From: Candidatus Doudnabacteria bacterium
Lineage (GTDB): Bacteria > Patescibacteriota > Doudnabacteria > UBA920 > O2-02-FULL-48-8
Assembly: GCA_016186915.1 (NCBI GenBank)
Contig: JACPKU010000004.1
Coordinates: 67,168 to 131,167, forward strand
DNA length: 64,000 nucleotides
Direction of reading: 5' to 3'
A program made the position numbers and the translations under genes. Positions 14,154-62,300 of the stretch are shown piece after piece (positions within the stretch are counted from its first letter, which is position 1; each line of letters starts with the position of its first letter). Below the pieces are notes generated by a model. That model was not told the origin of the DNA. It made no database searches and was given only the letters and a program-made list of their open reading frames with translations.

Positions 14154-14245
14154 TTTATAACCCCTCCCAGCCTCCCCTTATGTTAAGGGGACGAGATTTT
14201 TTAAACCCCCTCTTAAATAAGAGGGGGTAGGGGGAGTTAAACTTC
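14154..14245. repeat. Modular G-tract/AT-loop hairpin repeat cluster
   Basis: Modules ttataacccctcccagcc, cctccccttatgttaagggga, ccccctcttaaataagaggggg, gggggagttaaacttc. Homologous copies at 19861-19995, 28777-28863, 43513-43635. Confidence 0.6.
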
Positions 14246-16418: not shown

Positions 16419-16567
16419 CGGAGAGATTTTCCAGCCTTCGCTAAAGCTTCGGCGGATCCGCCGGAGCCTTGTGCGGAGGCGGAGAACTCTCACGGACTTG
16501 CGTCCACACGCTCCTGCCTGTCCGCCGAAATTTCGATGAAGGCGGAAAGCTGCGCGCCCCGCACTAA
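16419..16567 (-). pseudogene. tRNA-Leu-like copy interrupted by palindromic insertions
   Basis: Aligns to tRNA-Leu(CAG) T-arm, variable arm and the 3' part of the anticodon arm. Has a ~50-nt insertion in the T-loop and a ~34-nt insertion replacing the 5' anticodon stem. Both insertions contain ccgcc/ggcgg hairpins. No matching 5' acceptor strand nearby. Confidence 0.3.
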
Positions 16568-16588: not shown

Positions 16589-16662
16589 TGGTGCTCGAGG
16601 GGAGAGTCGAACTCCCACGGCCTTGCGGCCATACGCTCCTGAAGCGTACGTGCCCCGCACCA
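16589..16662 (-). tRNA. 3' portion of a second type-II tRNA-Leu(CAG)-like gene
   Basis: Intact TACGC-TTCAGGA-GCGTA anticodon arm, GGCC-GCAA-GGCC variable arm, GGGAG-TTCGACT-CTCCC T-arm, acceptor 3' strand CTCGAGC-A-CCA. Lacks acceptor 5' strand and D-arm. The matching GCTCGAG + D-arm lies at 16790-16854, on the far side of the intact tRNA-Leu. Confidence 0.35.
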
Positions 16663-16681
16663 AAAGAGCTTAGTTTTGTCT

Positions 16682-19000: not shown

Positions 19001-20959
19001 TCAAAGCTTGGCTTTTATCTTCTCTGCCAAGGAGCGGCCTACTACATTGGAAAGTTCGGTCATGTTAGCAGCTTTTAAAGCCGCGACAGAGCCAAATTTA
19101 CTGAGTAGTTGTTTTTTCTTTTGTGGTCCGATTCCGGGGATAGTGTCCAAGCTGGATAAAAGTAGGGATTGGGATCGGAGTTTGCGGTGGAAGGTTACGG
19201 CGAATCGGTGCGCTTCGTCGCGAATGCGCTGAAGGAGAAACAAAGCAATGGAATTAGGGGGAAGGGTTAAGGGTTTAGGATGCCTAGGCAGAAATATTTC
19301 CTCCAAGCGTTTGGCTAGACCAATGATAGGAATTTTTGTTTTTTTATTGTAAATTGAAAATTGAGATTTGGAAATTGCCGCGATAGCGGCGTTAAGTTGC
19401 CCGCGACCGCCGTCAATGAGGATAAGGTCAGGCAAGGGCCAGGCTTTGTTCCGTGTTCCGTGATCCGTGCCGCCTTTGGCGAGCCTCGCCTCTGGCGGGA
19501 TCCGTGACCTGGAGAATCTCCTTTCCAGCATCTCGCGCATCATAGTGTAATCGTCGGGCGTGTGTTTGCTTCGGATCTTGAATCGCCGATAATCTTGTTT
19601 TTTGGGCCGTCCGTAATCAAATACTACCATTGAGCCGACAGGATTCATCCCTTGAACATTGGAAATATCATAGGCCTCGATTCGACCGGGCAATTTGGAT
19701 AAATTAAGCACGCGTTGCAATTCTTTAAGCGAAGCAAGCAGCCTGGCTTCTTCTAGCAGATTTTTATCACCAGTGCTTTCTAAGTACTGTTTGGCGTTTT
19801 CTGTGCCGAGTTGGATGAGCTTGAGCTTCTGGCCGCGGGATGGAACGAAGATTCGCGGACGTAACTCCCCCTCACCAGCTCTCGGCAGCCGGTGAGGTAG
19901 GGAATTTCCTCTTATACTAAGAGGGGGTTTTTTTGCAGCTACACCTCCCCTTATATTAAGGGGAGGCTGGGAGGGGTTATAACCCTGGGCTGGTAATAGA
20001 ATCTCCCTCGGCCAGCTACTCGCTTCCAAATAATATTTCGGCAGAAATTCATCTAAGATTTCTGCGGGTGTTGCTCCTTTGGTGTTTTTGAGAATAAAGT
20101 TTTCTTTTCTAATCAATTTGCCTTCCCGAATGAGAAATAAATTGATCGAGCCGAGACTGCCCGTAAGATAGAGACTAAAAATATCCTGATCAACTTTTTT
20201 CGGATACACCAGTTTTTGTTTTTCTAATACTCTATTAATAGTAAAGATCTGGTCTCGGATTCGCGCCGCTTTTTCATACTGTCTGTTTCTGCTTAGTTGG
20301 CTCATTTGGGATTTTAAATCGTCGAGCGTTTTTAGCTGCCAGCCGGATAAAAGTTGGACGATCTGATCAATAGCTTTTCGATACTCCGCCAAAGAAATTT
20401 TGCCGATACAGACACCCGGACACTTGCCAATGTGATAATAAAAACATGGCTTGGTGCCAACCTTGGAATTGGAGCAATAAGGAAAAATTTTACGGATCAA
20501 ACGCAAGGTTTGTTTGATGGAATAAGAGGATGTGTAAGGGCCTAAGTAGCGCGCCGATTTACCTGCCCGCCGTAGCTTTAGCGAAGGCGGGTCGGCAATT
20601 TTGCGCTCGAAGTCTATGGTCGGGATTTCGTCCTGGATATTGATTTTTATAAACTGAAAATTTTTGTCGTCTTTCAGCATCATATTGTATTTGGGCTGGA
20701 ATTCCTTGATGAAATTGTTTTCCAAAATCAGGCTTTCGGTTTCATTGTCTGTGATCACATAGCTTAGATCCCGGATTTGGCTGATCATCTGCTGAATCCT
20801 GTTTGATCTTGCTGGGTCGGGCTGGAAATAAGAACGGACTCGGTTTTTAAGCTTGTTGGCCTTGCCCACATACAAAATATCGCCAGCGGCGTTTTTGAAA
20901 ATATAGACGCCAGGTCTGGCTGGTAGTTGTTTGGTTTTTTGAGCCATGCTTTTGCGCAT
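19001..20959 (-). CDS. uvrC: Excinuclease ABC subunit C
   Basis: N-terminal GIY-YIG (PGVYIFKN..GDILYVGKA), UvrBC-interacting region, RNase H-like domain, C-terminal HhH (IPGIGPQKKKQLLSKFGS). Carries in-frame repeat insertions (19460-19489, 19861-19995, 20566-20591). Confidence 0.85.
   Translation of the reverse strand: MRKSMAQKTKQLPARPGVYIFKNAAGDILYVGKANKLKNRVRSYFQPDPARSNRIQQMISQIRDLSYVITDNETESLILENNFIKEFQPKYNMMLKDDKNFQFIKINIQDEIPTIDFERKIADPPSLKLRRAGKSARYLGPYTSSYSIKQTLRLIRKIFPYCSNSKVGTKPCFYYHIGKCPGVCIGKISLAEYRKAIDQIVQLLSGWQLKTLDDLKSQMSQLSRNRQYEKAARIRDQIFTINRVLEKQKLVYPKKVDQDIFSLYLTGSLGSINLFLIREGKLIRKENFILKNTKGATPAEILDEFLPKYYLEASSWPREILLPAQGYNPSQPPLNIRGGVAAKKPPLSIRGNSLPHRLPRAGEGELRPRIFVPSRGQKLKLIQLGTENAKQYLESTGDKNLLEEARLLASLKELQRVLNLSKLPGRIEAYDISNVQGMNPVGSMVVFDYGRPKKQDYRRFKIRSKHTPDDYTMMREMLERRFSRSRIPPEARLAKGGTDHGTRNKAWPLPDLILIDGGRGQLNAAIAAISKSQFSIYNKKTKIPIIGLAKRLEEIFLPRHPKPLTLPPNSIALFLLQRIRDEAHRFAVTFHRKLRSQSLLLSSLDTIPGIGPQKKKQLLSKFGSVAALKAANMTELSNVVGRSLAEKIKAKL
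19460..19489. repeat. CCGCC..GGCGG palindromic element variant in frame in uvrC
   Basis: ccgcctttggcgagcctcgcctctggcgg encodes RLAKGGTDHG in UvrC. Confidence 0.6.
19861..19995. repeat. Modular G-tract hairpin repeat cluster in frame within uvrC
   Basis: cccctcaccagctctcggcagccggtgaggtaggg, cctcttatactaagaggggg, cctccccttatattaaggggagg, gggaggggttataaccc. Encodes ~45 aa (..PPLNIRGGVAAKKPPLSIRGNSLPHRLPRAGEGELRP..) without stops. Confidence 0.65.
20566..20591. repeat. CCCGCC-gtagctttagcgaa-GGCGGG hairpin element in frame in uvrC
   Basis: Encodes PPSLKLRRAG. A related loop motif, gaagctttagcg, occurs at 9399-9422 and 16436-16460. Confidence 0.55.
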
Positions 20960-20977
20960 GAACCTATGCTAACAACC

Positions 20978-21006
20978 CTTGACAAATCCGTCAAAAATGA
21001 CTAGGA
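20978..21006 (+). promoter_or_regulatory. Sigma70-like promoter TTGACA-17-TAGGAT upstream of the GC-rich gene
   Basis: ttgacaaatccgtcaaaaatgactaggatat. Confidence 0.4.
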
Positions 21007-21117
21007 TATGATGTCCTGTAATCAAGGGGACAACTGCGGCTCCGACAGAACTCGGATCCTGGGCCTCGGGATAAGGGGCAAATTGCTCTTCGGGCAAATT
21101 AGCCTGAAGGAGGGATT

Positions 21118-22056
21118 ATGAAACTCATGGATTGGGATCTTTTCGGCAAGTGGACTGGCGATGATCACCGTTCGTTGATCAGCGCTCTCGGTGAGGAGAA
21201 CGCGCGAGCCGTGAAGAGCGGCCAACTCGTTCTCAAGGTCACCAAGCCGGCAACGGAAACCGAGCCGGGAGAGTTCGTGCTGGAAGAGCCGGTCAGGCCG
21301 ATGTTCGACTCACACGGCCGGCGGATTCCGCCTCAAGGCATGAAAGCCAAGGCGGTGGATGCCAACCGCTCGTTCTACCTTGACCAGCCGAAGCTCGACT
21401 TCGGATCACGGCTGGCGCGGTTCGCCGAGCACTTCGGCTGCGGCACGTTCATGTCAGCCGATGAGTTCGAAGGCCGGTTCGTCGAGATTCTGCGGTGGCT
21501 GGCTACGGATCTGCTCACGGCCAACCTACCGATCAACGGCGTTGTGTTGCCGCTGGCCCTGCCGAAAATGCAAATCGACGACCTCGGCCAGTTCACGGAA
21601 GTGAAGCTCCTGGCCGCGGTCAAGCGGGCTTATGAGCAACAGTTCCCCGGGCGGAACTTTAAGAACTACCGCGCCGGCAAACTGGCCAAGCAGGTCAAGG
21701 TCGTGGCCGATAGCCATAACCGGCTGCTGCGGAAGCTGGCCGAAGGCCCGGTCGTGCTGGGCTACTCCCCGAACTGTCTGCAGGGATTCTCCATCCCGGC
21801 AGATCGGGAACAGATGAATACGCTGCCCGATGACTTGCTGCTGTGCGGCGTCATCGAGCCGGCAGCGGCCCTGACCACTTACTCGGACGTCCTGGCGCGT
21901 GATTACCAGACCCCGGGTCTGGATTGCGCCGCAGTCCAGTGGCAGTCGCGGGAGTTCTCGCTCTACTTCAGGGCCTACGACAGTGCGCTTGAGTTCGACC
22001 ACAGGCCTCTGCCTGCCTACGGCAACTCTTCCGGCGGCTTGTCCGTCCTCGGGTAG
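21118..22056 (+). CDS. Hypothetical protein in a GC-rich islet (~60% GC)
   Basis: Strong SD (aaggaggg, then ATG). Composition sharply different from flanks. Followed by a terminator. Confidence 0.5.
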   Translation: MKLMDWDLFGKWTGDDHRSLISALGEENARAVKSGQLVLKVTKPATETEPGEFVLEEPVRPMFDSHGRRIPPQGMKAKAVDANRSFYLDQPKLDFGSRLARFAEHFGCGTFMSADEFEGRFVEILRWLATDLLTANLPINGVVLPLALPKMQIDDLGQFTEVKLLAAVKRAYEQQFPGRNFKNYRAGKLAKQVKVVADSHNRLLRKLAEGPVVLGYSPNCLQGFSIPADREQMNTLPDDLLLCGVIEPAAALTTYSDVLARDYQTPGLDCAAVQWQSREFSLYFRAYDSALEFDHRPLPAYGNSSGGLSVLG

Positions 22057-22105
22057 TTCGTTGGTTTCTCGGTTTTTGGGATTTGGATCCTCGGTCCAAT
22101 CCTGT

Positions 22106-22139
22106 GGGAGCAATCACGTTTGGTTGCTCCCATTTTTTT
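22106..22139 (+). terminator. Rho-independent terminator (gggagcaa..ttgctccc + T7)
   Basis: Stem plus TTTTTTT. Confidence 0.55.
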
Positions 22140-22150
22140 GTCCAAGACCA

Positions 22151-22192
22151 AGCATTCCCTTTTTGCCACATATGTGGCAAAAAGGGAATGCT
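22151..22192. repeat. Perfect 42-bp palindrome centred on CATATG
   Basis: agcattccctttttgccacatatgtggcaaaaagggaatgct. Confidence 0.7.
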
Positions 22193-25313: not shown

Positions 25314-25763
25314 TCACGGCTTCCGGATCTTTAACGCGATGCTGTCGAGAGTATAGTAGTGATCCACATCATCCCACCGACAGCCAATCCGGAAGTGGAC
25401 CGAGCAGAATGTAAACGCTATGTAAGGCAGAAAAAACCAGGAGTTTTTTCTGATCCTCACCAGGCTGAACTGCCATTGTCCATTGGCCGGGATCGGTTTT
25501 GGCCCCACCTCGCCGGATGTGGCCATAGCTTGAAGATAGTGCCTGCTTCCAAAAATCATGGTCGGCGGCTCAAGTAGGGCCCGGGCGGTCATACTTCGGC
25601 ACATCCAGCTTTGGAGCGGTATGCGGTCAGCGTGCGGTTGGTTGCTCAGGTGTCTTGGGAGACCAGTGGGGATTTTCCCAAATAGAGCAAGCGCATACCC
25701 CAGGCCGATATAACCTCCGATTAGACAGAGGGACAGCTCGAGTATGGCAAGCAAAGAAGTCAT
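25314..25763 (-). CDS. Hypothetical membrane protein
   Basis: ORF with an N-terminal hydrophobic segment. Moderately GC-rich. Bidirectional hairpin at 25282-25313. Weak support. Confidence 0.3.
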   Translation of the reverse strand: MTSLLAILELSLCLIGGYIGLGYALALFGKIPTGLPRHLSNQPHADRIPLQSWMCRSMTARALLEPPTMIFGSRHYLQAMATSGEVGPKPIPANGQWQFSLVRIRKNSWFFLPYIAFTFCSVHFRIGCRWDDVDHYYTLDSIALKIRKP

Positions 25764-27143: not shown

Positions 27144-27848
27144 ATGATAACTTTTTATAATTGGGAATGCCCGCCTCGCTTTTTGGATATTGATGGAGGA
27201 ATCAGCTATTTAGTTGATTTGGATAAGATATTCAAAGGCCAGAAAATTGATAAATTTACAGAACTACCCAGAGTAGTATCACAATCGAAAAGAGAGATAA
27301 GAATTTTAAAAAAATTAAATTCGTTAGGTCTTAAGTATCGGTTCGTGAAAATTATTGCTGATACTAACGCTTATTATTTGACTCCCGAGAGCTTACAACG
27401 ATACGGCGAACAGAACGTCAAAAGAAAATTTTTGGAGTTTAAAACAAAGATTGAGGGGGGTATCTTAAAGTATCCGGCAAGGACAAAAGTCTTTTTGTTT
27501 ACAGAGTTAATTAAAGATTATCAGCAGTTGTATGACAAATCATTTCAAAAAGCGCTGAAACTTTTAAAACAAGACAAACTCGTATCCAAATGGTGGATAG
27601 CTGAACAATTAAAGAGAACAAAAGAACACGTTGGGATTAATGAGGCTGAAAAATTACAAGAATTTTGTTTCAGGACTATTGCCAGTTACGCTGCTGAAGG
27701 GTTGGTCTTTGGTCGGCTCTCTAAGACAAGATTTTTCGCCAATTGTGTCTGGTTGAACATCGAAGAGGCTGACGAAAGAACCATAACAATTACGAATTCT
27801 CTGAGAATTAAAGAAGGTAAGGACCCCTTGCCAATGCTATTTATGTAA
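27144..27848 (+). CDS. Hypothetical protein
   Basis: AT-rich ORF. No motif recognised. Confidence 0.4.
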   Translation: MITFYNWECPPRFLDIDGGISYLVDLDKIFKGQKIDKFTELPRVVSQSKREIRILKKLNSLGLKYRFVKIIADTNAYYLTPESLQRYGEQNVKRKFLEFKTKIEGGILKYPARTKVFLFTELIKDYQQLYDKSFQKALKLLKQDKLVSKWWIAEQLKRTKEHVGINEAEKLQEFCFRTIASYAAEGLVFGRLSKTRFFANCVWLNIEEADERTITITNSLRIKEGKDPLPMLFM

Positions 27849-28776: not shown

Positions 28777-28863
28777 GCCCCCTCTTAGAATAAGAGGGGG
28801 ATAGGGGGAGTTAGATTCAGAGGATTATAACCCCTCCCAACCTCCCCTTATATTAAGGGGAGG
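28777..28863. repeat. Modular G-tract hairpin repeat cluster
   Basis: ccccctcttagaataagaggggg, gggggagttagattc, ttataacccctcccaacc, cctccccttatattaaggggagg. Confidence 0.6.
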
Positions 28864-28874
28864 AGAATACGAAT

Positions 28875-29794: not shown

Positions 29795-30115
29795 TCACGG
29801 CAAGACAGCAGACCGTTTTGCCTCTTGGATATAAGGCAGGGTAAATCCTAGGGCAATCAGCTGCATACCCACATAGACGTACAAGGACAAAAGTCCTTGG
29901 CAGCTCCAGATCCACGGCTCTCCTTCTGCCAGCATCAGCCAATTAAGACTGAAGCAAAACAACGTGATTCCTGAAACCACCATGGCCATGCAAGTCACAG
30001 GCGGGAGCCGAGGCGCTTGCCGCACAGACCGAAGGTAGCAGATGATCAAGGTGAGGGCGAGGGCGAGGTTAAACAAAAAGGTTCTGCCGCCGAGCAGTTC
30101 AAGTATCAACAGCAT
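29795..30115 (-). CDS. Hypothetical small membrane protein
   Basis: Three predicted TM helices. Bidirectional hairpin at 29770-29802. Confidence 0.35.
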   Translation of the reverse strand: MLLILELLGGRTFLFNLALALTLIICYLRSVRQAPRLPPVTCMAMVVSGITLFCFSLNWLMLAEGEPWIWSCQGLLSLYVYVGMQLIALGFTLPYIQEAKRSAVLP

Positions 30116-33428: not shown

Positions 33429-34613
33429 ATGGCTGAGGACTATTATTCAATTTTGGGTGTTGCCAAAACCGCAACCGCAGAAGAGATTAAGAAAGCTTAC
33501 AGAAAATTGGCACACAAGCATCATCCGGACAAAGGTCAAGGCGGGGATCCTGAAAAATTCAAACAGGCCAGTGAAGCTTATCAGGTTTTATCCAACGCAG
33601 AGACGCGGGGCCAGTATGACCAGTTTGGCACGACTTTCGAACAGGCTCGCAGGCAAGGTTACGGTGGTTTTTCCGCCAAAGGCGGACCAGCCTCTGGCTG
33701 GGATTTTTCTGATTTTATGCGCGGCTTCGATTTTGGCGATTTTTCCGCCGGAGGCGGATCCGCCTTTGGCGGAGAAGATGCCTTTGATATTTTTTCCGGG
33801 ATTTTTGGCGGCCAAGCTACGGGCAGACGACCGCGCAGAGCGCGGGGCGTGGATCTGGAGATGGAGCTGGATATTACTTTTGACGAGGCAGTATTTGGCG
33901 TGGCAAAAAAGATTAAGCTTGAAAAAAAAGACAAATGCTCCGCTTGCGAAGGGTCTGGAGCAAGGCCTGGGAGCAAGATTGTTACTTGTGCCAGATGTCA
34001 CGGCACCGGACAAATCCGAACGCATCGTCGAACAATTCTTGGACAAATTGCCCAAGTCAGTGTATGTGACCAATGCGATGGCAGCGGCAAGGTGGCCGAA
34101 GAAGCATGTCAGGAGTGTGACGGGAGCGGCATAGTCAGAAAAGAGAAAACACTGGAGGTGAAAATTCCGGCTGGGGTGGATAATGGTACCAGAATCAGAA
34201 TCAGCAACGAGGGCGAGGCTGGATACAAAGGGTCAAGTCCCGGCGATTTGTATTTACGGCTTAATGTGGCGCCGCATCCGGAATTCAAACGGGAAGGCCA
34301 AGATATCTATTTGGAAATTCCCATCAGTTTTTACCAGGCCGCGCTTGGCACCACCATTGAGGTGCCAACCATTGATGGCAGAGTTAGTTTGAAGATCCCG
34401 GCCGGCACGCAATCCGGCAAGGTTTTCCGGCTGAAAAATAAAGGAGTGGTAAAAGTGAACGGGTCTTCTCGCGGCGAGCAATATGTAACGGCCAATGTCG
34501 TTACCCCGGCCAAGCTTACCAAGAAAGAAAAAGAATTGTTCAAACAACTGGCAGAAGAAAACGGCGAGACTGTCGACGTGGATGAGAGTCTCTGGTCTAA
34601 ATTCACAAGCTAA
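33429..34613 (+). CDS. dnaJ: Chaperone DnaJ
   Basis: J domain (HPD: KHHPDK), G/F region, four CxxCxGxG zinc-finger repeats, C-terminal substrate-binding domain. G/F region contains two copies of the 28-bp palindromic element. Confidence 0.85.
33673..33701. repeat. 28-bp palindromic element (degenerate copy) in frame in dnaJ
   Basis: ccgccaaaggcggaccagcctctggctgg. Confidence 0.6.
33744..33771. repeat. 28-bp palindromic element in frame in dnaJ
   Basis: ccgccggaggcggatccgcctttggcgg encodes [11 protein letters not shown]. Confidence 0.8.
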
Positions 34614-34738
34614 ACGTATGTTCTCCCTCTGGCCCGATTTGGGATCTAAATTTTTAGTTGAGCATTTTCAGCGATCGCTGATTTTATTCAATATGATGTT
34701 ATCAGGTAAAAAAAGAGACCTGAGGTCGCAAGGCATCC

Positions 34739-35104
34739 TCAGGCTTGAGCAGGTACATTTGTGTGCACTTCATACGTTTCCTCTGTCGGTGCTGGGCCTG
34801 CAAGTTGCGTGACCAACTCTCCGACACTTATTCCCGGCCTTATCAGGACGGGTTGCGCTTTCCCTTGGAAGGTTACGATCAGGAAACGGTAAGTGCCAGT
34901 GCCGATTGAGCGACCGAGTTGGCCGAGGTCAGTTAGCGTCTCGTTGAGAGTAAGCGCCGAAGGAAGGTGAGCGAGCACTGCCTCTAAGGCAGCTCGCGCT
35001 CCTTCTCGATCAGCCAGTCTTTGCAGCTTGGCTTGTTCCCTGAATATGTCGATAGGCCGCCGACCGTCTGGGCCAGGCAGGTAGAGGTCCGAGTAGTGAG
35101 GCAT
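34739..35104 (-). CDS. Small GC-rich hypothetical protein
   Basis: About 60% GC. Perfect SD (aggaggaaacATG). Lies on the 3' side of tRNA-Lys. Confidence 0.4.
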   Translation of the reverse strand: MPHYSDLYLPGPDGRRPIDIFREQAKLQRLADREGARAALEAVLAHLPSALTLNETLTDLGQLGRSIGTGTYRFLIVTFQGKAQPVLIRPGISVGELVTQLAGPAPTEETYEVHTNVPAQA

Positions 35105-35244
35105 GTTTCCTCCTTCAAACAGAAAACCGAGTTATCCGACTCGGTTCGAATCTTTAGTCAGTTTGTTCAGTTGTCGTAATTCATGCTGCATTTTGGTTAA
35201 TATTATTATTCTGTTTGGTGTTTGTCAAATTCGGTTTTCGAAAA

Positions 35245-35270
35245 ATAAAAAACAGCGTAAGCTGTTTTTT
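35245..35270. terminator. Bidirectional terminator hairpin (aaaaaacagcgtaagctgtttttt)
   Basis: Perfect stem flanked by A- and T-runs. Confidence 0.55.
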
Positions 35271-35274
35271 ATTT

Positions 35275-35351
35275 TGGTGGGTGCAGCAGGATTCGAACCT
35301 GCGACCCTCTGCTTAAAAGGCAGGTGCTCTACCAGGCTGAGCTATGCACCC
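35275..35351 (-). tRNA. tRNA-Lys (anticodon TTT), 77 nt
   Basis: Manual fold: GGGTGCA-TA-GCTC-AGCCTGGTA-GAGC-A-CCTGC-CTTTTAA-GCAGG-AGGGTC-GCAGG-TTCGAAT-CCTGC-TGCACCC-A-CCA. Confidence 0.8.
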
Positions 35352-35586: not shown

Positions 35587-36459
35587 ATGTTAGAGCCTAA
35601 ATTGATTCAAATTAAAACCCAAGACAAGTTGATTCTGCCCGGGCTTCTGTTCGAAGCCAAGAAATCCCAAAAAATAGCTATCCACCTTCATGGCAATGGC
35701 AGTAGTTCAGTTTTTTATCATGATGATATCCGCCCAGAGAAGGCGGAGGCATTAGTAAGGAATGGGATTTCATTTTTTCAATTTAACAACCGAGGAGCGA
35801 ATTATATCAAAAAACTCAATTCGGCGCGTTTCGGCATGGCTTATGAAAAAATAAAAGAATGCATTCATGATATTGAAGCCGTGCTTGGAGCATTCAAAAG
35901 ATCCGGTTATAAAGAATTTTATCTCATCGGCGAATCAACTGGAGCCAATAAGATTTGTGTTTACGATTTTTATCGGACAAAAAATTTTGTTTCTAAATAT
36001 GTGCTTTTGGGCGGTGGCGATGATGTAGGAATTTATTATGACTTACTTAAGAAAAAGAAATTCAGCCGTTTATTAAGTGAAGCCAAGAAGAAAATCAGAG
36101 CAAGAAAAGGAGCAGAGATTATTTTAGAGCTTCTTCCAGATATAGTTTTTTCCTATCAAGGCTTTTACGACATCGCCAATCCTGATGGAGATTATAATAT
36201 ATTTCCTTTTTATGAGGTGATCAGAAAAGTTAAATTATCTAAGAAGCCCTTGTTCCGTCACTTCAAAGCTTTGAAAAAGTCGACCTTGGTGGTTTATGGC
36301 AGTGAAGACAAATACAATTGGGGAGATACATCCAGAGTCGTCCAAATTTTAAAAGAGCAAAGGCCTGATTTGGACTATAATATTATTAAAGGCGCGGACC
36401 ATAGTTTTTCTAAGCATCAAATTAAACTTTCTAAAATGATAGCAAAATTTTTGAGATGA
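35587..36459 (+). CDS. Alpha/beta-hydrolase-fold protein
   Basis: GESTG nucleophile elbow (GxSxG). Length and spacing typical of an esterase. Confidence 0.5.
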   Translation: MLEPKLIQIKTQDKLILPGLLFEAKKSQKIAIHLHGNGSSSVFYHDDIRPEKAEALVRNGISFFQFNNRGANYIKKLNSARFGMAYEKIKECIHDIEAVLGAFKRSGYKEFYLIGESTGANKICVYDFYRTKNFVSKYVLLGGGDDVGIYYDLLKKKKFSRLLSEAKKKIRARKGAEIILELLPDIVFSYQGFYDIANPDGDYNIFPFYEVIRKVKLSKKPLFRHFKALKKSTLVVYGSEDKYNWGDTSRVVQILKEQRPDLDYNIIKGADHSFSKHQIKLSKMIAKFLR

Positions 36460-36923
36460 GGATTTTGAGTGAGACGAGGAGAGAAGAATTGGTGAAACAG
36501 TTCGGCAGCCACCGAGATTTTAAGTATTTTGGCAAGTCTTACAAACACTGTTATTTGGCGGCTTTGACTAAAGAAGAATACGAAAATTTGGGTATGAATT
36601 CTTCCCCGGAAAATCCTTTTCCAGAAAAAGGGTATTTTCCGAAAATGAAGGAAAGTGTGGCGCAGTTTCTGCAGCATCCCAAATATCTGGAAAAGTCTCA
36701 TCCGGATCGCGGCATCAGCGGCATCACGGTTAAAAGATATTTGCAAGAATTTCAAAAGGGATTAAAGCTTCGAGATTGTTTTATCACTGACGATGTGCCA
36801 GCCAACGCTTATTATATTTGCGAAGGCATGCACCGACTGACTGCTTATGGAGTGTTTAAGGAGTTGGATATAAAGGATTACGATGTGCAAGTTTATTATC
36901 ATACTAATAAAAATTTTAATTAA
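36456..36923 (+). CDS. Hypothetical protein
   Basis: ORF. No motif recognised. Confidence 0.35.
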   Translation: MRILSETRREELVKQFGSHRDFKYFGKSYKHCYLAALTKEEYENLGMNSSPENPFPEKGYFPKMKESVAQFLQHPKYLEKSHPDRGISGITVKRYLQEFQKGLKLRDCFITDDVPANAYYICEGMHRLTAYGVFKELDIKDYDVQVYYHTNKNFN

Positions 36924-42918: not shown

Positions 42919-44034
42919 ATGAATCGAGGATTTTGGGATAAGTTAACTAAACCAATAATGATTTTGGCGCCTATGGCCAATGTCACTGATTTTGCATTTC
43001 GTAAAATGATTGCGCAATACGGCAAGCCAGATGTAATGTGGACAGAGTTTGTGTCAGTTGATGGCTTGTGTTCGCCAGGCAAGGAGAGGCTGATGATTGA
43101 TTTGAAATATTCAGAAATTGAACGGCCAATTGTCGCCCAATTTTTTGGGAGCAAACCAGAAAATTTTTATAAGTGTGCTCAACTTGCACAAGAACTTAAA
43201 TTTGACGGCATAGATATCAATATGGGTTGCCCTGACAAGTCAGTGGAAAAGCAAGGCGCTGGGGCGGCACTGATGAAAAACCCAAAATTAGCTAAAGAGA
43301 TAATTTTAGCTACTCAAGAAGGTGCGGGAGAGTTGCCAGTTTCTGTCAAAACACGTCTTGGATACAACAAGATTGATTTTGAAGACTGGCTACCGACATT
43401 GTTTGAGGCCAAACCTGCAGCCGTAATTTTTCATCTGCGAACGCGCAAAGAGATGTCTAAGGTGCCGGCGCATTGGGAAGTGATGCCGGAAATAATGAGC
43501 CTTATTGGGGCTTCCCCCCTTGAAACAAGGGGGGAAAGAGGGGGGTTAGAGGCAAAGCCCTCTGATCTAACTCCCCCTACCCAGCTCTCGGCAGCTGGTG
43601 AGGTAGGGGACTTCTCTTATTCTAAGAGGGGGTTTAGCGCTCCATTGATTCTTGGCAATGGGGATGTGATGAGTTTGCAGCAAGGAATAGAAAAATGCGC
43701 GCAGACAGGTGCAGACGGCGTAATGTTTGGCAGAGGGATTTTTGGCAATCCGTGGTTGTTTAACAGAGAGATTAGGGTTGAGGGATTAGAGATTAGAGAC
43801 AAACTCAAGGTCATGATTGAGCATACCAAGCTGTTCGAAAAGACTTTTATATCCGCCAGAGGCGGACCCGCCTCTGGCGGGAAGAGCTTTGAAGTGATGA
43901 AGAAGCACTACAAAGCCTATGTCAACAATTTCGAGGGCGCGAAGGAATTGCGGGCGGAGTTGATGGAAGGAGCGTCCACAGCCCAAGACGTAGAAAGAAT
44001 AGTCAAGAATTTTTTACTTGCGGATCAAAAGTAG
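42919..44034 (+). CDS. dus: tRNA-dihydrouridine synthase
   Basis: ILAPMANVTDFAFR...IDINMGCP TIM-barrel Dus motifs. Contains a ~40-aa repeat-derived insertion (43513-43635) and a palindromic element (43853-43880). Confidence 0.8.
   Translation: MNRGFWDKLTKPIMILAPMANVTDFAFRKMIAQYGKPDVMWTEFVSVDGLCSPGKERLMIDLKYSEIERPIVAQFFGSKPENFYKCAQLAQELKFDGIDINMGCPDKSVEKQGAGAALMKNPKLAKEIILATQEGAGELPVSVKTRLGYNKIDFEDWLPTLFEAKPAAVIFHLRTRKEMSKVPAHWEVMPEIMSLIGASPLETRGERGGLEAKPSDLTPPTQLSAAGEVGDFSYSKRGFSAPLILGNGDVMSLQQGIEKCAQTGADGVMFGRGIFGNPWLFNREIRVEGLEIRDKLKVMIEHTKLFEKTFISARGGPASGGKSFEVMKKHYKAYVNNFEGAKELRAELMEGASTAQDVERIVKNFLLADQK
43513..43635. repeat. Modular G-tract hairpin repeat cluster in frame within dus
   Basis: cccccttgaaacaagggggg, ggggggttagag..ctctgatctaactcccc, ctacccagctctcggcagctggtgaggtagggg, ctcttattctaagaggggg. 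Confidence 0.65.
43853..43880. repeat. 28-bp palindromic element in frame in dus
   Basis: ccgccagaggcggacccgcctctggcgg encodes SARGGPASGGK. Confidence 0.8.
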
Positions 44035-46335: not shown

Positions 46336-48600
46336 TCATTCTTTTGTAAAATCACAATCTTTATTACTGCATTTGATAACCCCGTCTTTGGCAAAGATTA
46401 ATAGATCGCCAGACTTCGGGCATTTTTCGCCCGTGGGTTTAGTGGGCAAACTGAATTTACATTTTGGATAGCGAGAGCAGGAATAAAAGATGCCGCGCTT
46501 GCTTCTTCGCTCCACCAGCTCGCCTTCTCCGCAAACCGGGCAAGCAACGCCTGTGGTTTTTTCAATTTTTTTGATGTTCTTGCATTCCGGATAGCCGGTG
46601 CAGCCGAGGAAAGACCCGAACCGGCCAAACTTTACGGCCATGGGGCGGCCGCATTTGTCGCAAACCTCGCCTTTGTTCTCATCAATGATTTTTTGCTCCT
46701 CTGGCATGGGCCTGGTGAACTTGCATTCCGGATAGTTGGAGCAGGCAATGAATTTGCCAAACCGCCCGAATTTTATAACCAGCGGATGCCCGGAGTCTGG
46801 GCATTTTTCATCCAGGGTTTCCACGTGTTTTTCCACGGTTGTTTCTTTTTGCTTTAGGTTCTCATGAAAAGGGCTATAAAATTCTTTTATCACCGGCACC
46901 CATTGCTTGTTGCCTGCGGCAATTTCGTCCAAGCTCTCTTCCATGCCTGCGGTAAATTGGTAATCTACGATTTTGGGAAAATGCTCCACCAAAATATCAT
47001 TGACGATGAATCCCATTTCCGAAGGATGAAATTTTTTGTCAATCTTATGCACGTAGTCGCGGTCCTGGATGGTGCTGATTGTCGGCGCATAAGTGGAAGG
47101 CCGGCCAATGCCATATTCTTCCATTGTCTTAATTAAGCTTGCATCAGTGAACCTTGGGGGCGGCTGGGTAAAATGCTGTTTGGGCAAAATCTTGACCACT
47201 TTGGGTTTATCGCCTTTATTAAGTTGGGGCAATAATCCCTCTTCCTCCTCTTCGCCATTTTCTTCGTCTTTGCCTTCCAGATAGACTTTCATAAAGCCGT
47301 CAAATTTTATAATCTGCCCAGTGGAGCGGAAAATGTAAGCTTTTTCTTTCCCGCCGGAGGCGGGTCCGCCTTTGGCGGATATTTCCGTGTCCACTGAAGT
47401 TGCGTCAAACAAAGCCTCAGGCATTTGCGTGGCGATTGTTCGTTTCCAGATAAGCTCATAAAGCCGATATTGATTGCGGTCCAAATACTGTTTTATGCTT
47501 TCCGGATCCCGAGTTAGATCTGTGGGCCGGATGGCTTCGTGGGCTTCCTGGGCGTTTTTGCTTTTCGATGCGAACTGGCGCGGCCGGTCCAAAAGATAAT
47601 CCTTGCCATAACGCTGACTGATCGCAGACTTGGCTGATTGCAGGGCAAAGTCAGAAAGATTAACTGAATCAGTACGCATATAGGTAATTAAGCCCGTGGC
47701 TTCATCTTCCCCCAATTCCACGCCTTCGTAGAGTTGCTGGGCGTACATCATGGTTTGTTTGGCACTAAAGCCCAATTTACGGGCGGCTTCCTGCTGCATG
47801 GTGGAGGTGATAAAAGGCGCGGCCGGCGTTCTTTTGACTTCTTTTTTGTTGACCTCAACTACTTGGGCAGGATAGCTGGCAAGATCGGATAAAATCTTTT
47901 TGGCTTGGATCTCGTTTTTGATTGCCAGTTTGTCCAAATTTTTTCCATCAACTTTCGCAAGCTTGCCTAAGAAATTGCTGTCTTTATGGAAAGTGGCGAT
48001 AATGCTCCAGTATTCTTCAGGCTTGAATTTTTGGATTTCTTTTTCGCGTTCTACAATTAAGCGCACTGCCACTGACTGCACGCGGCCAGCGGAAAGCCCG
48101 CGTTTGACTTTTTTCCACAAGAAAGGCGAGAGTTCATAGCCGACTAATCGATCAAGCACGCGCCTTGCTTGCTGGGCATCCACCAAGTGCAGATCTAACT
48201 CACGCGGATTTTTTAAAGCCTCCTCAATCGCCGACTTAGTAATTTCGTGAAAAGCAATGCGTTTTATTTTGGGATTTGGGATTTGGGATTTGGGATTTTC
48301 CAAGCCGAGTGCTTGGATAAGGTGCCACGCGATGGCTTCGCCTTCGCGGTCTTCGTCTGTGGCGAGGATTATTTCTGGCGCGTCTTTAGCTAATTTTTTA
48401 AGCTCTGCGATTTTCTTTTTGGCTTTGGGCGGGACCAGGTAAGTCGGTTCAAAATCATGCTCAATATCAATCCCCATTTTGCTGGTGGGCAAATCGCGGA
48501 TATGGCCAAACGAGGCCTCCACCTTGTATTGACCATCCAGAAAACGCGAAATGGTTTTCGCCTTGGTGGGAGATTCAACGATGACTAAAGATTTAGGCAT
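46336..48600 (-). CDS. topA: DNA topoisomerase I
   Basis: TOPRIM N-terminus (SLVIVESPTKAKTI), catalytic region, multiple C-terminal C4 zinc ribbons. Carries an in-frame palindromic element (47351-47378) and a tandem heptamer tract (48271-48298). Confidence 0.9.
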   Translation of the reverse strand: MPKSLVIVESPTKAKTISRFLDGQYKVEASFGHIRDLPTSKMGIDIEHDFEPTYLVPPKAKKKIAELKKLAKDAPEIILATDEDREGEAIAWHLIQALGLENPKSQIPNPKIKRIAFHEITKSAIEEALKNPRELDLHLVDAQQARRVLDRLVGYELSPFLWKKVKRGLSAGRVQSVAVRLIVEREKEIQKFKPEEYWSIIATFHKDSNFLGKLAKVDGKNLDKLAIKNEIQAKKILSDLASYPAQVVEVNKKEVKRTPAAPFITSTMQQEAARKLGFSAKQTMMYAQQLYEGVELGEDEATGLITYMRTDSVNLSDFALQSAKSAISQRYGKDYLLDRPRQFASKSKNAQEAHEAIRPTDLTRDPESIKQYLDRNQYRLYELIWKRTIATQMPEALFDATSVDTEISAKGGPASGGKEKAYIFRSTGQIIKFDGFMKVYLEGKDEENGEEEEEGLLPQLNKGDKPKVVKILPKQHFTQPPPRFTDASLIKTMEEYGIGRPSTYAPTISTIQDRDYVHKIDKKFHPSEMGFIVNDILVEHFPKIVDYQFTAGMEESLDEIAAGNKQWVPVIKEFYSPFHENLKQKETTVEKHVETLDEKCPDSGHPLVIKFGRFGKFIACSNYPECKFTRPMPEEQKIIDENKGEVCDKCGRPMAVKFGRFGSFLGCTGYPECKNIKKIEKTTGVACPVCGEGELVERRSKRGIFYSCSRYPKCKFSLPTKPTGEKCPKSGDLLIFAKDGVIKCSNKDCDFTKE
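47351..47378. repeat. 28-bp palindromic element in frame in topA
   Basis: ccgccggaggcgggtccgcctttggcgg encodes [10 protein letters not shown]. Confidence 0.8.
48271..48298. repeat. Perfect tandem heptanucleotide repeat (gggattt)x4 inside topA
   Basis: Read directly. Encodes PKSQIPNPK on the coding strand. Confidence 0.85.
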
Positions 48601-51577: not shown

Positions 51578-51709
51578 ATGGAAGACACTGAATCGGGGGA
51601 CTTCCCATCCGTGTTGGGTATGATCGTCCTCCTTGTCCTCGTCGTCCTCGCCGAATGCGTCATTTGGTTTTTTGAGGTCCGGGATTTTATCCTGGGCTGG
51701 CGTCGGTAA
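51578..51709 (+). CDS. Small hydrophobic protein (43 aa) in a GC-rich cassette
   Basis: Perfect SD aggagg 6 nt upstream. GC-rich. Confidence 0.3.
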   Translation: MEDTESGDFPSVLGMIVLLVLVVLAECVIWFFEVRDFILGWRR

Positions 51710-51740
51710 CCCAATCACAATCACCGGTGAGGAGAACACG

Positions 51741-52049
51741 ATGCCTTATAACGCATGGCAAGACCAGGTCGCCGGTGTTGCGGTCGGTTTCGCTGTTGTG
51801 GCGGCTGCCGCTGGCCTGGCATTCGGACCGTCCGAAACAAGCGGGGCTCTGCTCAGCTTGCTCGGCAAGGCTCTTGCTGTAGGCGCTGTGTTGCTCATCT
51901 GCCTGGCAATCTGCGCCCGTTTGGCCTGGCGACTGAAGAGAAGAAGAACTGGGAGCCTCCCGTTCGGTGAGGAAATGTACGACTCTCACGGAGGACTGCC
52001 TGGCTCAGAAAGGGAGGTGGCCCGGATGTCTCACGAGGGGCGCTAACGT
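51741..52049 (+). CDS. Small membrane protein (~102 aa) in a GC-rich cassette
   Basis: SD ggtgaggag. Ala/Gly/Val-rich TM segments, basic RLKRRR. Confidence 0.35.
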
Positions 52050-52121
52050 TGGCGTCGTTGTCGCAGCTGCGGAGGTCCCGCGGCTAAACTACAACGTCTG
52101 CTGTCGTTCGGAGGGAACGAG

Positions 52122-52325
52122 ATGCATCGTCGCGTCAGCTCGTTCGTACCGTCGCCTCCACCGGATCTGTCGGCGGAGGCTCCACTGGTCAAGGCCCTCC
52201 TCGGAGTACAGCTCTCGTCTGACGAGGCTGCTTCACTCCCGTTGAGCGCCGATCTCGGCAGCGTTCAGGACTGGAGACAGGTCATAGCGAGAAGCAACAG
52301 GCTCGCCGGCCTGGAGGAGTCCTGA
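52122..52325 (+). CDS. Small hypothetical protein (67 aa) in a GC-rich cassette
   Basis: SD ggaggg. GC-rich. Confidence 0.3.
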   Translation: MHRRVSSFVPSPPPDLSAEAPLVKALLGVQLSSDEAASLPLSADLGSVQDWRQVIARSNRLAGLEES

Positions 52326-52327
52326 CC

Positions 52328-52546
52328 ATGTCCCGCAGTCGTTGGACTGTAGGGGCTAGGTTCGTCCGGTCCCAGCGGGTCAGTCCGCCAGGACCGGCTT
52401 CACGGGGAGTCACGAGTCCTCTGCCGTCTCTCCCGAGGCAGCAGCCGAAGGCGGTCGAACCGCCACCGAGTGCAACCAAGGAAGAGCAGCGAGAGTGGGC
52501 TCGCAAGATTTTTGACGGCATGTTCCTACCATCCCGCCAGTAAGAC
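52328..52546 (+). CDS. Small hypothetical protein (71 aa) in a GC-rich cassette
   Basis: SD ggagg. Followed by a terminator at 52583-52620. Confidence 0.3.
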
Positions 52547-52582
52547 CGATACCCTGATCCCAGCCAGGGTGCCAAAGCAACA

Positions 52583-52620
52583 AGGCTCGTCGTTTCCTTA
52601 AACGACGAGCCTCTTTTTTT
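52583..52620 (+). terminator. Rho-independent terminator (ggctcgtcgtttccttaaacgacgagcc + T7)
   Basis: Long perfect stem plus TTTTTTT. Confidence 0.6.
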
Positions 52621-52814: not shown

Positions 52815-53153
52815 CTAATCTAAGTCGTTATATAGATCTCTCCAATCTTTGTTATTAGTTTCGATAAGTTTAATTTTCTTTTTTCTAGAACCTGCCTTGA
52901 TTTGTTTTTCTCTTGCCAAAACAGCATCATAGTCGTCTCCGATCTCAAAATACACCAGCTTAGTGATATTGTATTTTTTAGTAAATCCATGAACGAGTTT
53001 GTTTTTGTGTTCCCAGACCCGAGCTTTTAAAGGTTTGCTAGTAAACCCAGTATAAAGTGTAGTATTTGTCGGGTTCGTCATGATATAAACAAAATACTGC
53101 TCGTCTTGCATATATATAAAGATTGCTTCACCCCGCCAAGGCGGGGTTCGCAA
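52815..53153 (-). CDS. GIY-YIG-family nuclease (COG2827-like)
   Basis: YFVYIMTN..NTTLYTGFTSKPLKARVWEHK....GFTKKY....LVYFE..DDYD.AVLAREKQIK. Confidence 0.7.
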   Translation of the reverse strand: MRTPPWRGEAIFIYMQDEQYFVYIMTNPTNTTLYTGFTSKPLKARVWEHKNKLVHGFTKKYNITKLVYFEIGDDYDAVLAREKQIKAGSRKKKIKLIETNNKDWRDLYNDLD

Positions 53154-56841: not shown

Positions 56842-56918
56842 GGACGGTTAGCTCAGTTGGTTAGAGCGCGCCGTTCACATCGGCGAGGTCACTGGTTCGA
56901 GTCCAGTACCGTCCACCA
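56842..56918 (+). tRNA. tRNA-Val (anticodon CAC), 77 nt
   Basis: GGACGGT-TA-GCTC-AGTTGGTTA-GAGC-G-CGCCG-TTCACAT-CGGCG-AGGTC-ACTGG-TTCGAGT-CCAGT-ACCGTCC-A-CCA. Confidence 0.8.
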
Positions 56919-56949
56919 GGAAAATCTAAAAATCTAACGGGGCAGGCAT

Positions 56950-56987
56950 TGCAGGGGCCACAGGTTCGAATCCTGTACCGCCCACCA
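56950..56987 (+). tRNA. tRNA 3' half X (anticodon stem 3' strand, variable loop, T-arm, acceptor, CCA)
   Basis: TGCAG-GGGCC-ACAGG-TTCGAAT-CCTGT-ACCGCCC-A-CCA. Pairs with 5' half B. Confidence 0.45.
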
Positions 56988-57021
56988 GTAAAAAGCACTC
57001 AAAATCTAACGGGGCAGGCAT

Positions 57022-57059
57022 TGCAGAAGTCGGCGGTTCGAATCCACCATTGCCCACCA
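57022..57059 (+). tRNA. tRNA 3' half Y
   Basis: TGCAG-AAGTC-GGCGG-TTCGAAT-CCACC-ATTGCCC-A-CCA. Pairs with 5' half A (one G-U). Confidence 0.45.
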
Positions 57060-57080
57060 TTAAGAAACTAATATATTACC

Positions 57081-57710
57081 ATGCAAGAACTAGGACAGTT
57101 CAGCGCACCTCAACCGGAAAAAAGCGGCTTTTCTCACATCATGTTATTTATCTGGGATTTTTTGAAAGTGATCTTGATTGCCTTGGCTGTCATTATCCCG
57201 ATCAGATATTTTTTGTTCCAGCCGTTTATTGTTTCTGGTTCTTCTATGGAGCCAAATTTTTCCAATGGCCAGTACTTGATTATTGACGAAATATCCTATC
57301 GTTTTCGACAGCCGCAAAGAGGAGAAGTTCTAGTGATTAGGTTTCCAGAAGACCGCAAGCAGTTTTTCATCAAGCGCGTGCTAGGCTTGCCCGGTGAGCA
57401 GGTAAAAATTGAAAACGGCAGAGTTATAATTTTCAACACCGAACATCCCAACGGTGCGGTGGTGGAGGAAGTTTATCTGTCCAATCAAGGACTGACCTTT
57501 CCGCACAACACGTCTTTGGTTGGGGGAAAAAATGTTTTGACGCTTAAGGAAGACCAGTATTTTATGTTGGGGGACAACCGTTTGGCTTCATCAGACTCCA
57601 GGGATTGGGGCATTTTGAAGGAGCAAGACATTGTCGGCAGAGTCTTCCTCCGCGCTCTTCCCATAACCACTTTTGATTTGTTTGACAGTCCGGAATACAC
57701 TTTTAATTAA
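57081..57710 (+). CDS. lepB: Signal peptidase I
   Basis: N-terminal TM. Catalytic SGSSMEPNF (Ser), RGEVLVIRF, GDNRLASSDSRDWG box E. Confidence 0.85.
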   Translation: MQELGQFSAPQPEKSGFSHIMLFIWDFLKVILIALAVIIPIRYFLFQPFIVSGSSMEPNFSNGQYLIIDEISYRFRQPQRGEVLVIRFPEDRKQFFIKRVLGLPGEQVKIENGRVIIFNTEHPNGAVVEEVYLSNQGLTFPHNTSLVGGKNVLTLKEDQYFMLGDNRLASSDSRDWGILKEQDIVGRVFLRALPITTFDLFDSPEYTFN

Positions 57711-57715
57711 ACTTT

Positions 57716-58996: not shown

Positions 58997-59113
58997 GGCG
59001 CTTGTCCTATAGTTTGGGTAGAAGGCCCAAGCTTTTATTTTGACTTATTGACTATTTTGTGCTATATATAAGGAAGCTATATAAAGATTTTTTTAAGGAA
59101 GGGGTGAACTTCG

Positions 59114-59356
59114 TTGGTTGAAGTAAAAAAGAAAGAAGGAGAATCGTTTGAAAGTCTCCTGAGACGTTTTAACCGCAAGATTCAGCAAAGCGGTGTTTTG
59201 ATTCGCGCTCGAAAAATCAGATTCTATACGCCGAACAAATCACGCAATTTGCTTCGGGTTGATGCGGCCAGAAGAGCTGAGAACCGGGAAAAAAGGGAAG
59301 AGTTGAAAAAACTTGGCAAACTGCCGCTTTTCAGCCGCCGCAATAAACGAAAGTAA
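59114..59356 (+). CDS. rpsU: 30S ribosomal protein S21
   Basis: ESFE.LLRRF.R...Q.GVL...R...FY..P...R. Confidence 0.8.
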   Translation: MVEVKKKEGESFESLLRRFNRKIQQSGVLIRARKIRFYTPNKSRNLLRVDAARRAENREKREELKKLGKLPLFSRRNKRK

Positions 59357-59363
59357 GAAAAAA

Positions 59364-62299: not shown

Positions 62300-62300
62300 G

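Follow-up and report, generated by a model that had tools for sequence, protein, structure and literature searches.

The window analysed here is a stretch of 64,000 nucleotides from the genome of a very small groundwater bacterium of the Candidatus Doudnabacteria, and the elements in question are the short GC-rich genes dispersed along it, here termed islets, among them a focal islet that encodes a 121-aa protein next to tRNA-Lys. These islets are best read as accessory, self-contained cassettes in a syntenic backbone typical of the candidate phyla radiation (CPR), forming a class with its own composition and its own translation signal, and a probability of roughly 0.6 is given to this reading. 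A further-reaching form of it is offered tentatively, namely that the islets represent a distinct CPR compartment, GC-rich and led by Shine-Dalgarno (SD) sequences, that persists past synonymous saturation, and that one of its families is a widespread target of diversity-generating retroelements (DGRs) with a riboswitch-like leader.

The window as a whole has 46.6% GC, and its 49 backbone genes average 45.3% (standard deviation 4.3, maximum 52.5), with 49.5% GC at third codon positions (GC3), whereas the 11 islet genes span 52.6-63.2%. An earlier note on this DNA had picked out discrete GC-rich segments by eye, and these are borne out by a 300-nt GC profile, with peaks at about 21.0-22.2 kb (55-63%), 51.6-52.5 kb (58-65%), 62.7 kb to the end (56-60%), 34.8-35.1 kb (57%) and 26.4-27.0 kb (54-55%), although the peak at 12.6-13.2 kb is weak. 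When compared with length-matched in-frame segments taken from the backbone genes, all but two islet genes have a GC content above at least 98.8% of the segments; the two exceptions, the 106-aa gene and the 43-aa cassette gene, are above approximately 92% and 90%, respectively. The GC content of the islets is a real outlier, outside normal variance. Two islets beyond those listed earlier were found, the genes of 149 and 106 aa, both on the minus strand and both with AGGAGG. Islet proteins contain 7.3% arginine versus 4.7% in the backbone and 3.2% lysine versus 8.0%, and their amino-acid usage is of the GC type in general, with proline, leucine, tryptophan and cysteine also raised and asparagine and isoleucine low. 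For most islet genes GC3 is raised to 0.60-0.80, while for the focal gene it is 0.53. The islets are dispersed, no repeat common to them was found, and most have their own promoter-like sites and terminator-like hairpins; a hairpin followed by a T-run is clear in five of seven cassettes, and a sigma-70-like promoter match is not seen for all of them.

Translation signals separate the two sets of genes in the same way. Islets are always SD-led, whereas the backbone rarely uses an SD. In the 11 islet genes the duplex with the anti-SD has an energy between -8.6 and -12.6 kcal/mol, versus a backbone median of -0.4 (Mann-Whitney p = 2e-7, or 4e-7 with alternative backbone starts allowed), and comparably strong SDs in the backbone are limited to the genes at 28875 and 29347, which we take by homology as rplM and rpsI, and to one alternative start. 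A perfect AGGAGG lies 4-8 nt 5' of the start in seven GC-rich open reading frames (ORFs): 12709, 21118, 26305, 34739, the first gene of the four-gene cassette, 25314-25763(-) and 29795-30115(-). The earlier note had placed a canonical AGGAGG before every islet, which is accurate for five of the genes it listed but not for the purB-like gene, led by GGAGGAG, nor for cassette genes 2-4, led by GAGGAG, GGAGGG and GGAGGAG. Across the window AGGAGG is not enriched (21 observed versus 26.8 expected) and seven sites are found at the starts of GC-rich ORFs, indicating that it is the placement of the motif that is non-random. Relatives of the window hold GC-rich, SD-led extra genes of their own.

These relatives were located by a UvrA-based scan with one genome per species, and their loci are designated here by L numbers. 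In the nearest ones UvrA is 84% (L009, also Doudnabacteria), 83% (L006) and 76% (L007) identical, and the gene order trpS..uvrC-uvrA-trpR..rplM-rpsI-dnaK..dnaJ-tRNA-Lys is conserved. The intergenic gaps within this order are of a different size. The gap between dnaJ and tRNA-Lys measures 31-83 bp in L009, L086, L088 and L090-L092 versus 661 bp in the window, that between uvrC and uvrA 148 bp in L009 versus 1452 bp, and that between uvrA and trpR 129 bp in L009 versus 630 bp. The islet proteins, including those of the six single-gene islets, have no tblastn match at the L006, L007 and L009 loci. The dnaJ/tRNA-Lys junction is filled with unrelated sequence in other lineages: 399 bp in L006, 682 bp in L095, where a GC-rich 159-aa gene with GGAGG is found, 1390 bp in L089, 1245 bp in L007 and 3656 bp in L087 (AT-rich). 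The fact that the fillings are unrelated among lineages points to a hot spot of recurrent gain and loss.

An 88-aa ORF, SD-led, conserved and GC-rich (51-53%), lies between uvrC and uvrA in L170 (8682-8948) and L172 (5590-5856), and is a further small GC-rich cassette of the uvr neighbourhood in another lineage.

The assembly was checked with run-level Logan contigs from four other SRA runs. These are 100% identical to the window over 33747-35303 (dnaJ, the focal islet and part of the tRNA), 20564-22186 (uvrC and its islet) and 56871-64000 (ftsZ and purB), so that a chimeric assembly, against which the earlier note had cautioned, is excluded at these three islet junctions.

Two of the islets have syntenic counterparts in other genomes. 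The purB-like gene, cut by the window end, encodes a lyase that matches Pfam Lyase_1 at 6e-29 and ASL_C at 1.6e-6, the latter with 28.6 bits against a cut-off of 35, and that scores 242 bits against TIGR00928, for which the cut-off is 326, with a query truncated to 418 of 477 residues. It has 7740 relatives; of the best 120, nearly all that are named come from Patescibacteria, at about 60% identity. The next gene in the source genome is purC-like (SAICAR synthase), SD-led and of 61% GC. The purB-like gene is followed by an equally GC-rich, SD-led purC-like gene in L167, with the same pattern in L166, a relative with 77% identity that keeps the synteny ftsA-ftsZ...purB-purC. In L166 a block of pyrD-, pyrF-, amidohydrolase-, purB- and purC-like genes has 55-60% GC and GGAGG-type sites, while its neighbours have 47-50%. 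The purB-like gene is native and conserved in Patescibacteria. The 256-aa gene is old and syntenic, not recent: its orthologue in L091/L092 (51% identity, 55.8% GC, GAGGAGG) is likewise preceded by the trpR terminator hairpin, and the backbone around it has 35-50% GC. The AT-rich gene at 27144-27848 is syntenic with the 256-aa gene in L091/L092.

In the orthologue pairs of the 256-aa gene, its AT-rich neighbour, dnaK and purB, identity at four-fold degenerate third bases is 0.22-0.35; for the 256-aa gene and its L091/L092 orthologue it is 27%, which is saturated. GC3 stays high in both the 256-aa and the purB pairs, and the fact that it is kept despite the saturation of synonymous sites indicates that composition is held at a gene-specific equilibrium. 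Orthologues and members of the gene families also retain the signature in other CPR genomes of moderate AT content, and it is thus a stable property of these genes and not a vanishing remnant of their entry. Lateral acquisition, which the earlier note had proposed for the islets, stands in so far as they are mostly lineage-specific, with short gaps in relatives and with the six single-gene islets unmatched in L006, L007 and L009. Nonetheless, the purB-like and 256-aa genes are syntenic in relatives, and high GC, which had been taken as a mark of arrival, does not serve as one, given that the orthologues of these two genes, equally GC-rich, and the members of the 312-aa family, GC-rich relative to their flanks, are SD-led elsewhere too.

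The 312-aa protein is no ORFan, with at least 459 cluster representatives at E <= 1e-3 in a full phmmer scan. Members of this family occur as single genes amid uvrC/uvrA, PGI/uvrC, serS, bipA, ychF, rpoC and ruvB. DNA was recovered for eight genomic contexts, and in all eight the gene is SD-led and its GC content exceeds that of the flanking genes by 0.08-0.21 (Wilcoxon p = 0.004). The AlphaFold model made with the family alignment has a pLDDT (predicted local distance difference test) of 95; compared by Foldseek with PDB and BFVD, it has no match at E <= 1e-3, and a match to the C-type lectin fold that is expected of DGR variable regions was therefore not seen. L179 carries a bona fide DGR that targets this family. 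The last 115 nt of the L179 homologue are repeated 414 bp downstream with 16 mismatches between the copies, of which 15 fall at adenines of the template, and bAvd and a reverse transcriptase come after the template. Neither a template repeat nor Avd or a reverse transcriptase was found for the window copy within the 64 kb, and the 3' end of its gene resembles, at the DNA level, the conserved end of the L179 variable repeat. A reverse transcriptase fragment adjoins the family gene in L174/L175. Relatives of the 121-, 256- and 312-aa proteins were not found in IMG/VR, nor were any of the 312-aa protein in phage and plasmid collections (tblastn), so that a phage or plasmid origin of the queried proteins gains no support. 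The 'Gemmatimonadaceae' label carried by one family member was considered as evidence of a donor and rejected, since the flanks have about 42% GC and a CPR-like gene order. This contig, L172 (Ga0265296_1000768) / P0273, has the flanking order PGI, uvrC, uvrA, uvrB and was probably mis-binned into its 'Gemmatimonadaceae' metagenome-assembled genome (MAG). A perfect 42-nt palindrome lies at 22151-22192 of the window, between the terminator of the 312-aa gene and uvrA, and the Logan contigs end inside it.

A conserved structured leader RNA of about 85 nt is predicted 5' of all eight recovered genes of the 312-aa family. It consists of helix P1, variable in sequence and always paired, helix P2 (GCCNC/GNGGC) and helix P3 (UUUCGGGC/GCCUGAAA), which abuts the SD. 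In the alignment 88% of the cells pair, versus 57-60% with the partners slid by one column; after model-based realignment 93% pair, and the slid controls across both alignments reach 55-60% at most. Ten pairs change on both sides, which none of 500 shuffles reaches. The covariance model matches only the eight family leaders in 1.13 Mb of CPR-like DNA. Rfam, searched both at its gathering threshold and with a limit of E <= 1, gave no known RNA family for any islet leader, and a pattern scan of IMG/VR for the leader motif gave seven matches, all by chance and without the gene. A UCCUC stretch at the 5' side could pair with the SD as an alternative. Since only eight leader sequences are at hand, the leader is regarded as a promising candidate for a new cis-regulatory RNA and not as a proven riboswitch.

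The focal gene appears to be a 121-aa ORFan cassette inserted between dnaJ and tRNA-Lys with its own predicted signals for transcription and translation. As the earlier note had described, it lies at the 3' side of the tRNA with a bidirectional terminator between them; this hairpin was read directly from the letters and not listed by the terminator scanner. The SD is followed after 4 nt by the ATG, and the hairpin just upstream of it, with its U-rich run, could act as an attenuator. The segment is open in one frame of six. An antisense coding frame, suggested by GC being higher at first than at third codon positions, was rejected, given that the other five frames hold 3-7 stop codons. The sole match of the protein among 5.8 billion proteins is HYW51_01090 of a Candidatus Doudnabacteria MAG, at 100% identity. 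The 121-aa protein has no match in Pfam, PHROG, PADLOC or NCBIfam, no significant one in PDB (best E = 0.033), no relative in IMG/VR and no counterpart in the relatives' loci examined. The single-sequence AlphaFold model is unusable (pLDDT 43), and the protein is probably cytoplasmic. The earlier note had also stated that no integrase is present, and indeed no integrase domain was matched in the islet or in the neighbouring ORFs scanned. A flanking direct repeat of the tRNA 3' end was not found beyond a longest same-strand match of 8 nt. The 10-nt T-loop motif GGTTCGAATC occurs inverted in the leader of the focal gene (35143-35152), against a chance expectation of about 0.05 per strand; it may be the remnant of a tRNA fragment or have arisen by chance.

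Among the small islet proteins nothing significant was found in sequence searches of Pfam, PHROG, PADLOC, NCBIfam and PDB, and the 106-aa protein has a weak DUF423 match (E = 0.0015). The hydrophobic N-terminal stretch of the 149-aa protein, several hydrophobic stretches of the 106-aa protein and those of the products of cassette genes 1 and 2 may span the membrane. The four-gene cassette begins at 51578 rather than at 51536, as had been given earlier. A longer, 137-aa reading of its second ORF has a weak holin-like match (E = 0.005, below the Pfam cut-off), and the other cassette proteins have no family match in Pfam, PHROG, PADLOC or NCBIfam. The short motif that the earlier note had tentatively seen, by eye, in both the 12709 and the 34739 proteins has to be withdrawn, since BLASTP gives no alignment of the two at E <= 100.

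Table 1. Positions of the islets, of their signals and of the related elements (window coordinates, or coordinates of the locus named).
Feature	Position	Strand	Details
Islet gene, 101 aa	12709-13014	-	56.2% GC; AGGAGG
Structured 5' leader RNA of 312-aa gene (predicted)	21035-21122	+	about 85 nt; three helices; covariation
Islet gene, 312 aa	21118-22056	+	61.9% GC; GC3 80%; AGGAGG; uvrC-uvrA gap
Islet gene, 149 aa	25314-25763	-	53.6% GC; AGGAGG; uvrA-trpR gap
Islet gene, 256 aa	26305-27075	+	54.9% GC; AGGAGG, then TTG start
Islet gene, 106 aa	29795-30115	-	52.6% GC; AGGAGG
dnaJ, convergent	33429-34613	+	ends at 34613; Pfam DnaJ, DnaJ_CXXCXGXG, DnaJ_C
Predicted intrinsic terminator of focal gene	34700-34738	-	CCTGAGG..CCTCAGG stem and T7 run; from sequence
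Focal islet gene, 121 aa	34739-35104	-	56.6% GC; codon positions 1/2/3: 0.69/0.48/0.53
Perfect AGGAGG SD	35109-35114	-	4 nt 5' of ATG; anti-SD duplex -12.1 kcal/mol
Leader hairpin of focal gene	35124-35147	-	9-bp stem, then U-rich run; just upstream of SD
Sigma-70-like promoter match	35200-35228	-	TTGACA-17-TAATAT; 10/12 positions; consensus match only
Terminator-like hairpin, bidirectional	35245-35272	.	A6-CAGC-GTAA-GCTG-T6
tRNA-Lys(UUU)	35275-35351	-	72.6 bits; 3' end faces islet
GC-rich four-gene cassette	51578-52620	+	genes 53.8-63.2% GC; terminator 52583-52620
Cassette gene 1, 43 aa	51578-51709	+	
Cassette gene 2, 101 aa	51741-52046	+	
Cassette gene 3, 67 aa	52122-52325	+	
Cassette gene 4, 71 aa	52328-52543	+	
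purB-like lyase gene, cut by window end	62744-64000	+	58.7% GC; GC3 72%; GGAGGAG
Leader copy, L170	5918-6002		
Leader copy, L172	3054-3138		
Leader copy, L175	93-181		
Leader copy, L176	5914-6001		
Leader copy, L177	2918-3005		
Leader copy, L178	2918-3003		
Leader copy, L179	2918-3003		
DGR variable repeat, L179	3889-4003		
DGR template repeat, L179	4303-4417		
DGR bAvd, L179	4441-4794		
DGR reverse transcriptase (RVT_1), L179	4885-5848		

In the arrangement proposed, each cassette would consist of a promoter-like match (for most of them), a strong SD, one ORF or a small operon, and a terminator made of a hairpin and a T-run, and would sit in an intergenic gap of a syntenic, nearly SD-free housekeeping backbone. 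Individual lineages would gain and lose cassettes in gaps that are used repeatedly, such as dnaJ/tRNA-Lys and uvrC-uvrA, with no integrase involved, and the cassettes would presumably enter via DNA uptake and recombination. High GC, GC-type amino acids and a strong SD would then mark a class of genes and would not date their arrival. The composition might be maintained by exchange within a mobile pool of GC-rich genes, by biased gene conversion at recombination hot spots or by selection via SD-dependent translation.

Several points weigh against this arrangement. The gene calls are ORF-based and the promoters and terminators are consensus matches only, and the material consists of 64 kb of one genome and stretches of about 20 kb of its relatives, in which GC and SD strength are modestly correlated and each locus has 0-2 genes with a strong SD. 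The flexible genome is not uniformly GC-rich, since it also includes AT-rich accessory genes (27144-27848 and 35587-36923). Furthermore, no homologue was found for five islets (those of 121, 101, 149 and 106 aa and the cassette), among which the search of the 5.8 billion proteins was run individually for the 121-aa protein only, and for these a simple recent import is possible.

The AT-rich genes just named, together with that at 52815-53153, have 35-39% GC and no SD; the last of them encodes a stand-alone GIY-YIG nuclease and adjoins the GC-rich cassette.

The alternative that survives best is a recent transfer in which the donor, such as a host bacterium, was GC-rich, used SDs and lay outside the CPR, with the genes now slowly drifting to the composition of the recipient. 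Such a transfer would account for the absence of the islets from the nearest relatives, with their short ancestral gaps, for an SD signal foreign to the backbone and for the GC-rich amino-acid usage, and the focal gene, with GC3 of 0.53 near the 0.50 of the backbone and high GC at the first two codon positions, looks as amelioration would leave it. The donor itself is hard to place, given that the focal protein has no homologue outside its population among the 5.8 billion proteins, that the 312-aa family is found only in CPR-like housekeeping contexts, the 'Gemmatimonadaceae' contig with its flanks of about 42% GC included, and that the queried proteins have no phage, plasmid or IMG/VR match (IMG/VR only for the 121- and 256-aa proteins). 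Drift towards the recipient is likewise at odds with the high GC3 that the 256-aa gene and purB keep in their orthologues past synonymous saturation. Since a recent transfer explains absence in relatives and not persistence, it is ranked below the accessory cassettes and considered unlikely.

Persistence is what a second alternative explains, in which the genes are native and their composition is selected: proteins rich in alanine, arginine, proline and leucine would force GC-rich mRNAs that need an SD, and the patchy distribution would result from differential loss. The syntenic and vertically consistent purB-purC and 256-aa genes agree with it, as do the negative correlation of GC and SD strength in most related loci and the putative rplM and rpsI, which show the SD pathway in use. 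Nonetheless, gaps of 31-148 bp in several independent relatives favour insertion over many parallel losses, the same gaps hold different and unrelated genes across lineages, and GC3, which is not set by amino-acid content, is 0.60-0.80 in most islet genes. Given that neither the short ancestral gaps nor their differing fillings are explained, this alternative also ranks below the accessory cassettes and is quite improbable. An artefact of chimeric assembly, of contamination in binning or of GC-rich non-coding DNA with chance ORFs (stop codons being AT-rich), which the MAG origin of the source, the chance of about 1% per frame, by our own estimate, of a 122-codon open frame at 57% GC and the poor model of the focal protein might suggest, is very hard to credit, given the 100% match of the four other runs across dnaJ-islet-tRNA, uvrC-islet and ftsZ-purB, the correctly spaced SD before each ORF, the terminator directly after the stop codon for most, the single open frame of the focal segment and the real homologues of the 312- and 256-aa proteins.

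Repeats and tRNA-like copies were seen elsewhere in the window. A family of palindromes resembling repetitive extragenic palindromic (REP) elements (CCCCTTATATTAAGGGG...) occurs at 14155-14196, 19862-19986, 28782-28866 and 43565-43635, with one copy in-frame in uvrC, where UvrC has additional linker residues, PPLNIRGG/PPLSIRG, that are absent in L009 and L006. A second palindromic repeat is found at 16431-16455 and 20567-20591, and its uvrC copy corresponds to a 10-aa insert, PPSLKLRRAG, missing in relatives. A 36-nt palindromic repeat of the GGCGGATCCGCC type lies within genes at 5456-5491, 33666-33701, 33738-33773, 43846-43881, 47344-47379 and 62108-62143, also in the G/F region of dnaJ, and probably encodes Gly-rich linkers. 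A degenerate tRNA-like copy at 16592-16669 (-) adjoins tRNA-Leu and scores 26.8 bits, slightly less than the Rfam cut-off requires; tRNA-Val is followed by degenerate tRNA-like repeats at 56926-56994 and 56998-57066 (+), which resemble a T-arm and acceptor stem.

A deviating base composition is commonly interpreted as a sign of recent horizontal gene transfer (HGT). The genes studied here retain both that deviation and their translation signal in divergent genomes. A class of genes, and not a date of arrival, may thus be what GC content and SD use indicate in ultra-small symbionts, with a possible tie to hot spots of recombination or to a distinct way of initiating translation, and this bears on the calling of HGT in metagenome-assembled CPR genomes. 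The dnaJ/tRNA-Lys and uvrC-uvrA gaps offer concrete hot spots for the study of integrase-free gene gain, and as a by-product a testable candidate regulatory RNA is obtained 5' of a family of hypermutation-target proteins.

Among known systems, tRNA-adjacent genomic islands are integrase-mediated and bounded by attL/attR direct repeats of the tRNA 3' end. The focal islet is like them in all three of its odd composition, its position at the 3' side of a tRNA and its absence from relatives, but it is a single gene of 366 bp with no integrase and no flanking direct repeat of the tRNA of at least 8 nt that would frame it. Given that the junction holds unrelated genes in other lineages, a recombination hot spot fits better than a site-specific element. 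Integron cassettes are promoterless ORFs with an attC site, held in an array beside intI, whereas the islets are dispersed, mostly have promoter-like sites and terminators of their own and hold no common repeat. ORFans and recently acquired genes are reportedly, after Daubin and Ochman and after Rocha and Danchin, usually AT-rich relative to the host. The islets resemble typical ORFans in being short, lineage-restricted, without assigned function and located in variable gaps, and differ from them in that the GC content of most exceeds that of the host by 6-18 points, contrary to what is usual.

DGR target proteins of CPR bacteria are said to have been described by Paul et al. in 2017. The L179 homologue is like such targets, with a C-terminal variable repeat, a template with adenine-specific mismatches, bAvd and a reverse transcriptase, while the window copy differs in lacking template repeat, Avd and reverse transcriptase within 64 kb. 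Like riboswitches and SD-occluding leaders, the leader of the 312-aa gene has covarying helices, one of them abutting the SD; unlike known riboswitches, it matches no Rfam family and is represented by eight sequences. DGRs are common in the CPR, where DGR clade 2 is distinguished, according to Roux et al. 2021 (PMC8144416). Genomic islands and HGT make up as much as 13% of genome length in Patescibacteria, according to the work on groundwater Patescibacteria (PMC12455944). The setting there is the same, CPR genomes with a notable share of horizontally acquired DNA exchanged mostly among Patescibacteria, and the passages considered here do not describe intergenic single-gene cassettes, a split between SD-led islets and an SD-poor backbone, or a GC-richness that persists in orthologues. 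HGT islands and CPR DGRs are thus known, and, set against these passages, the apparently new elements are the split between SD-led islets and SD-poor backbone, the persistent GC-richness of the orthologues and the leader RNA.

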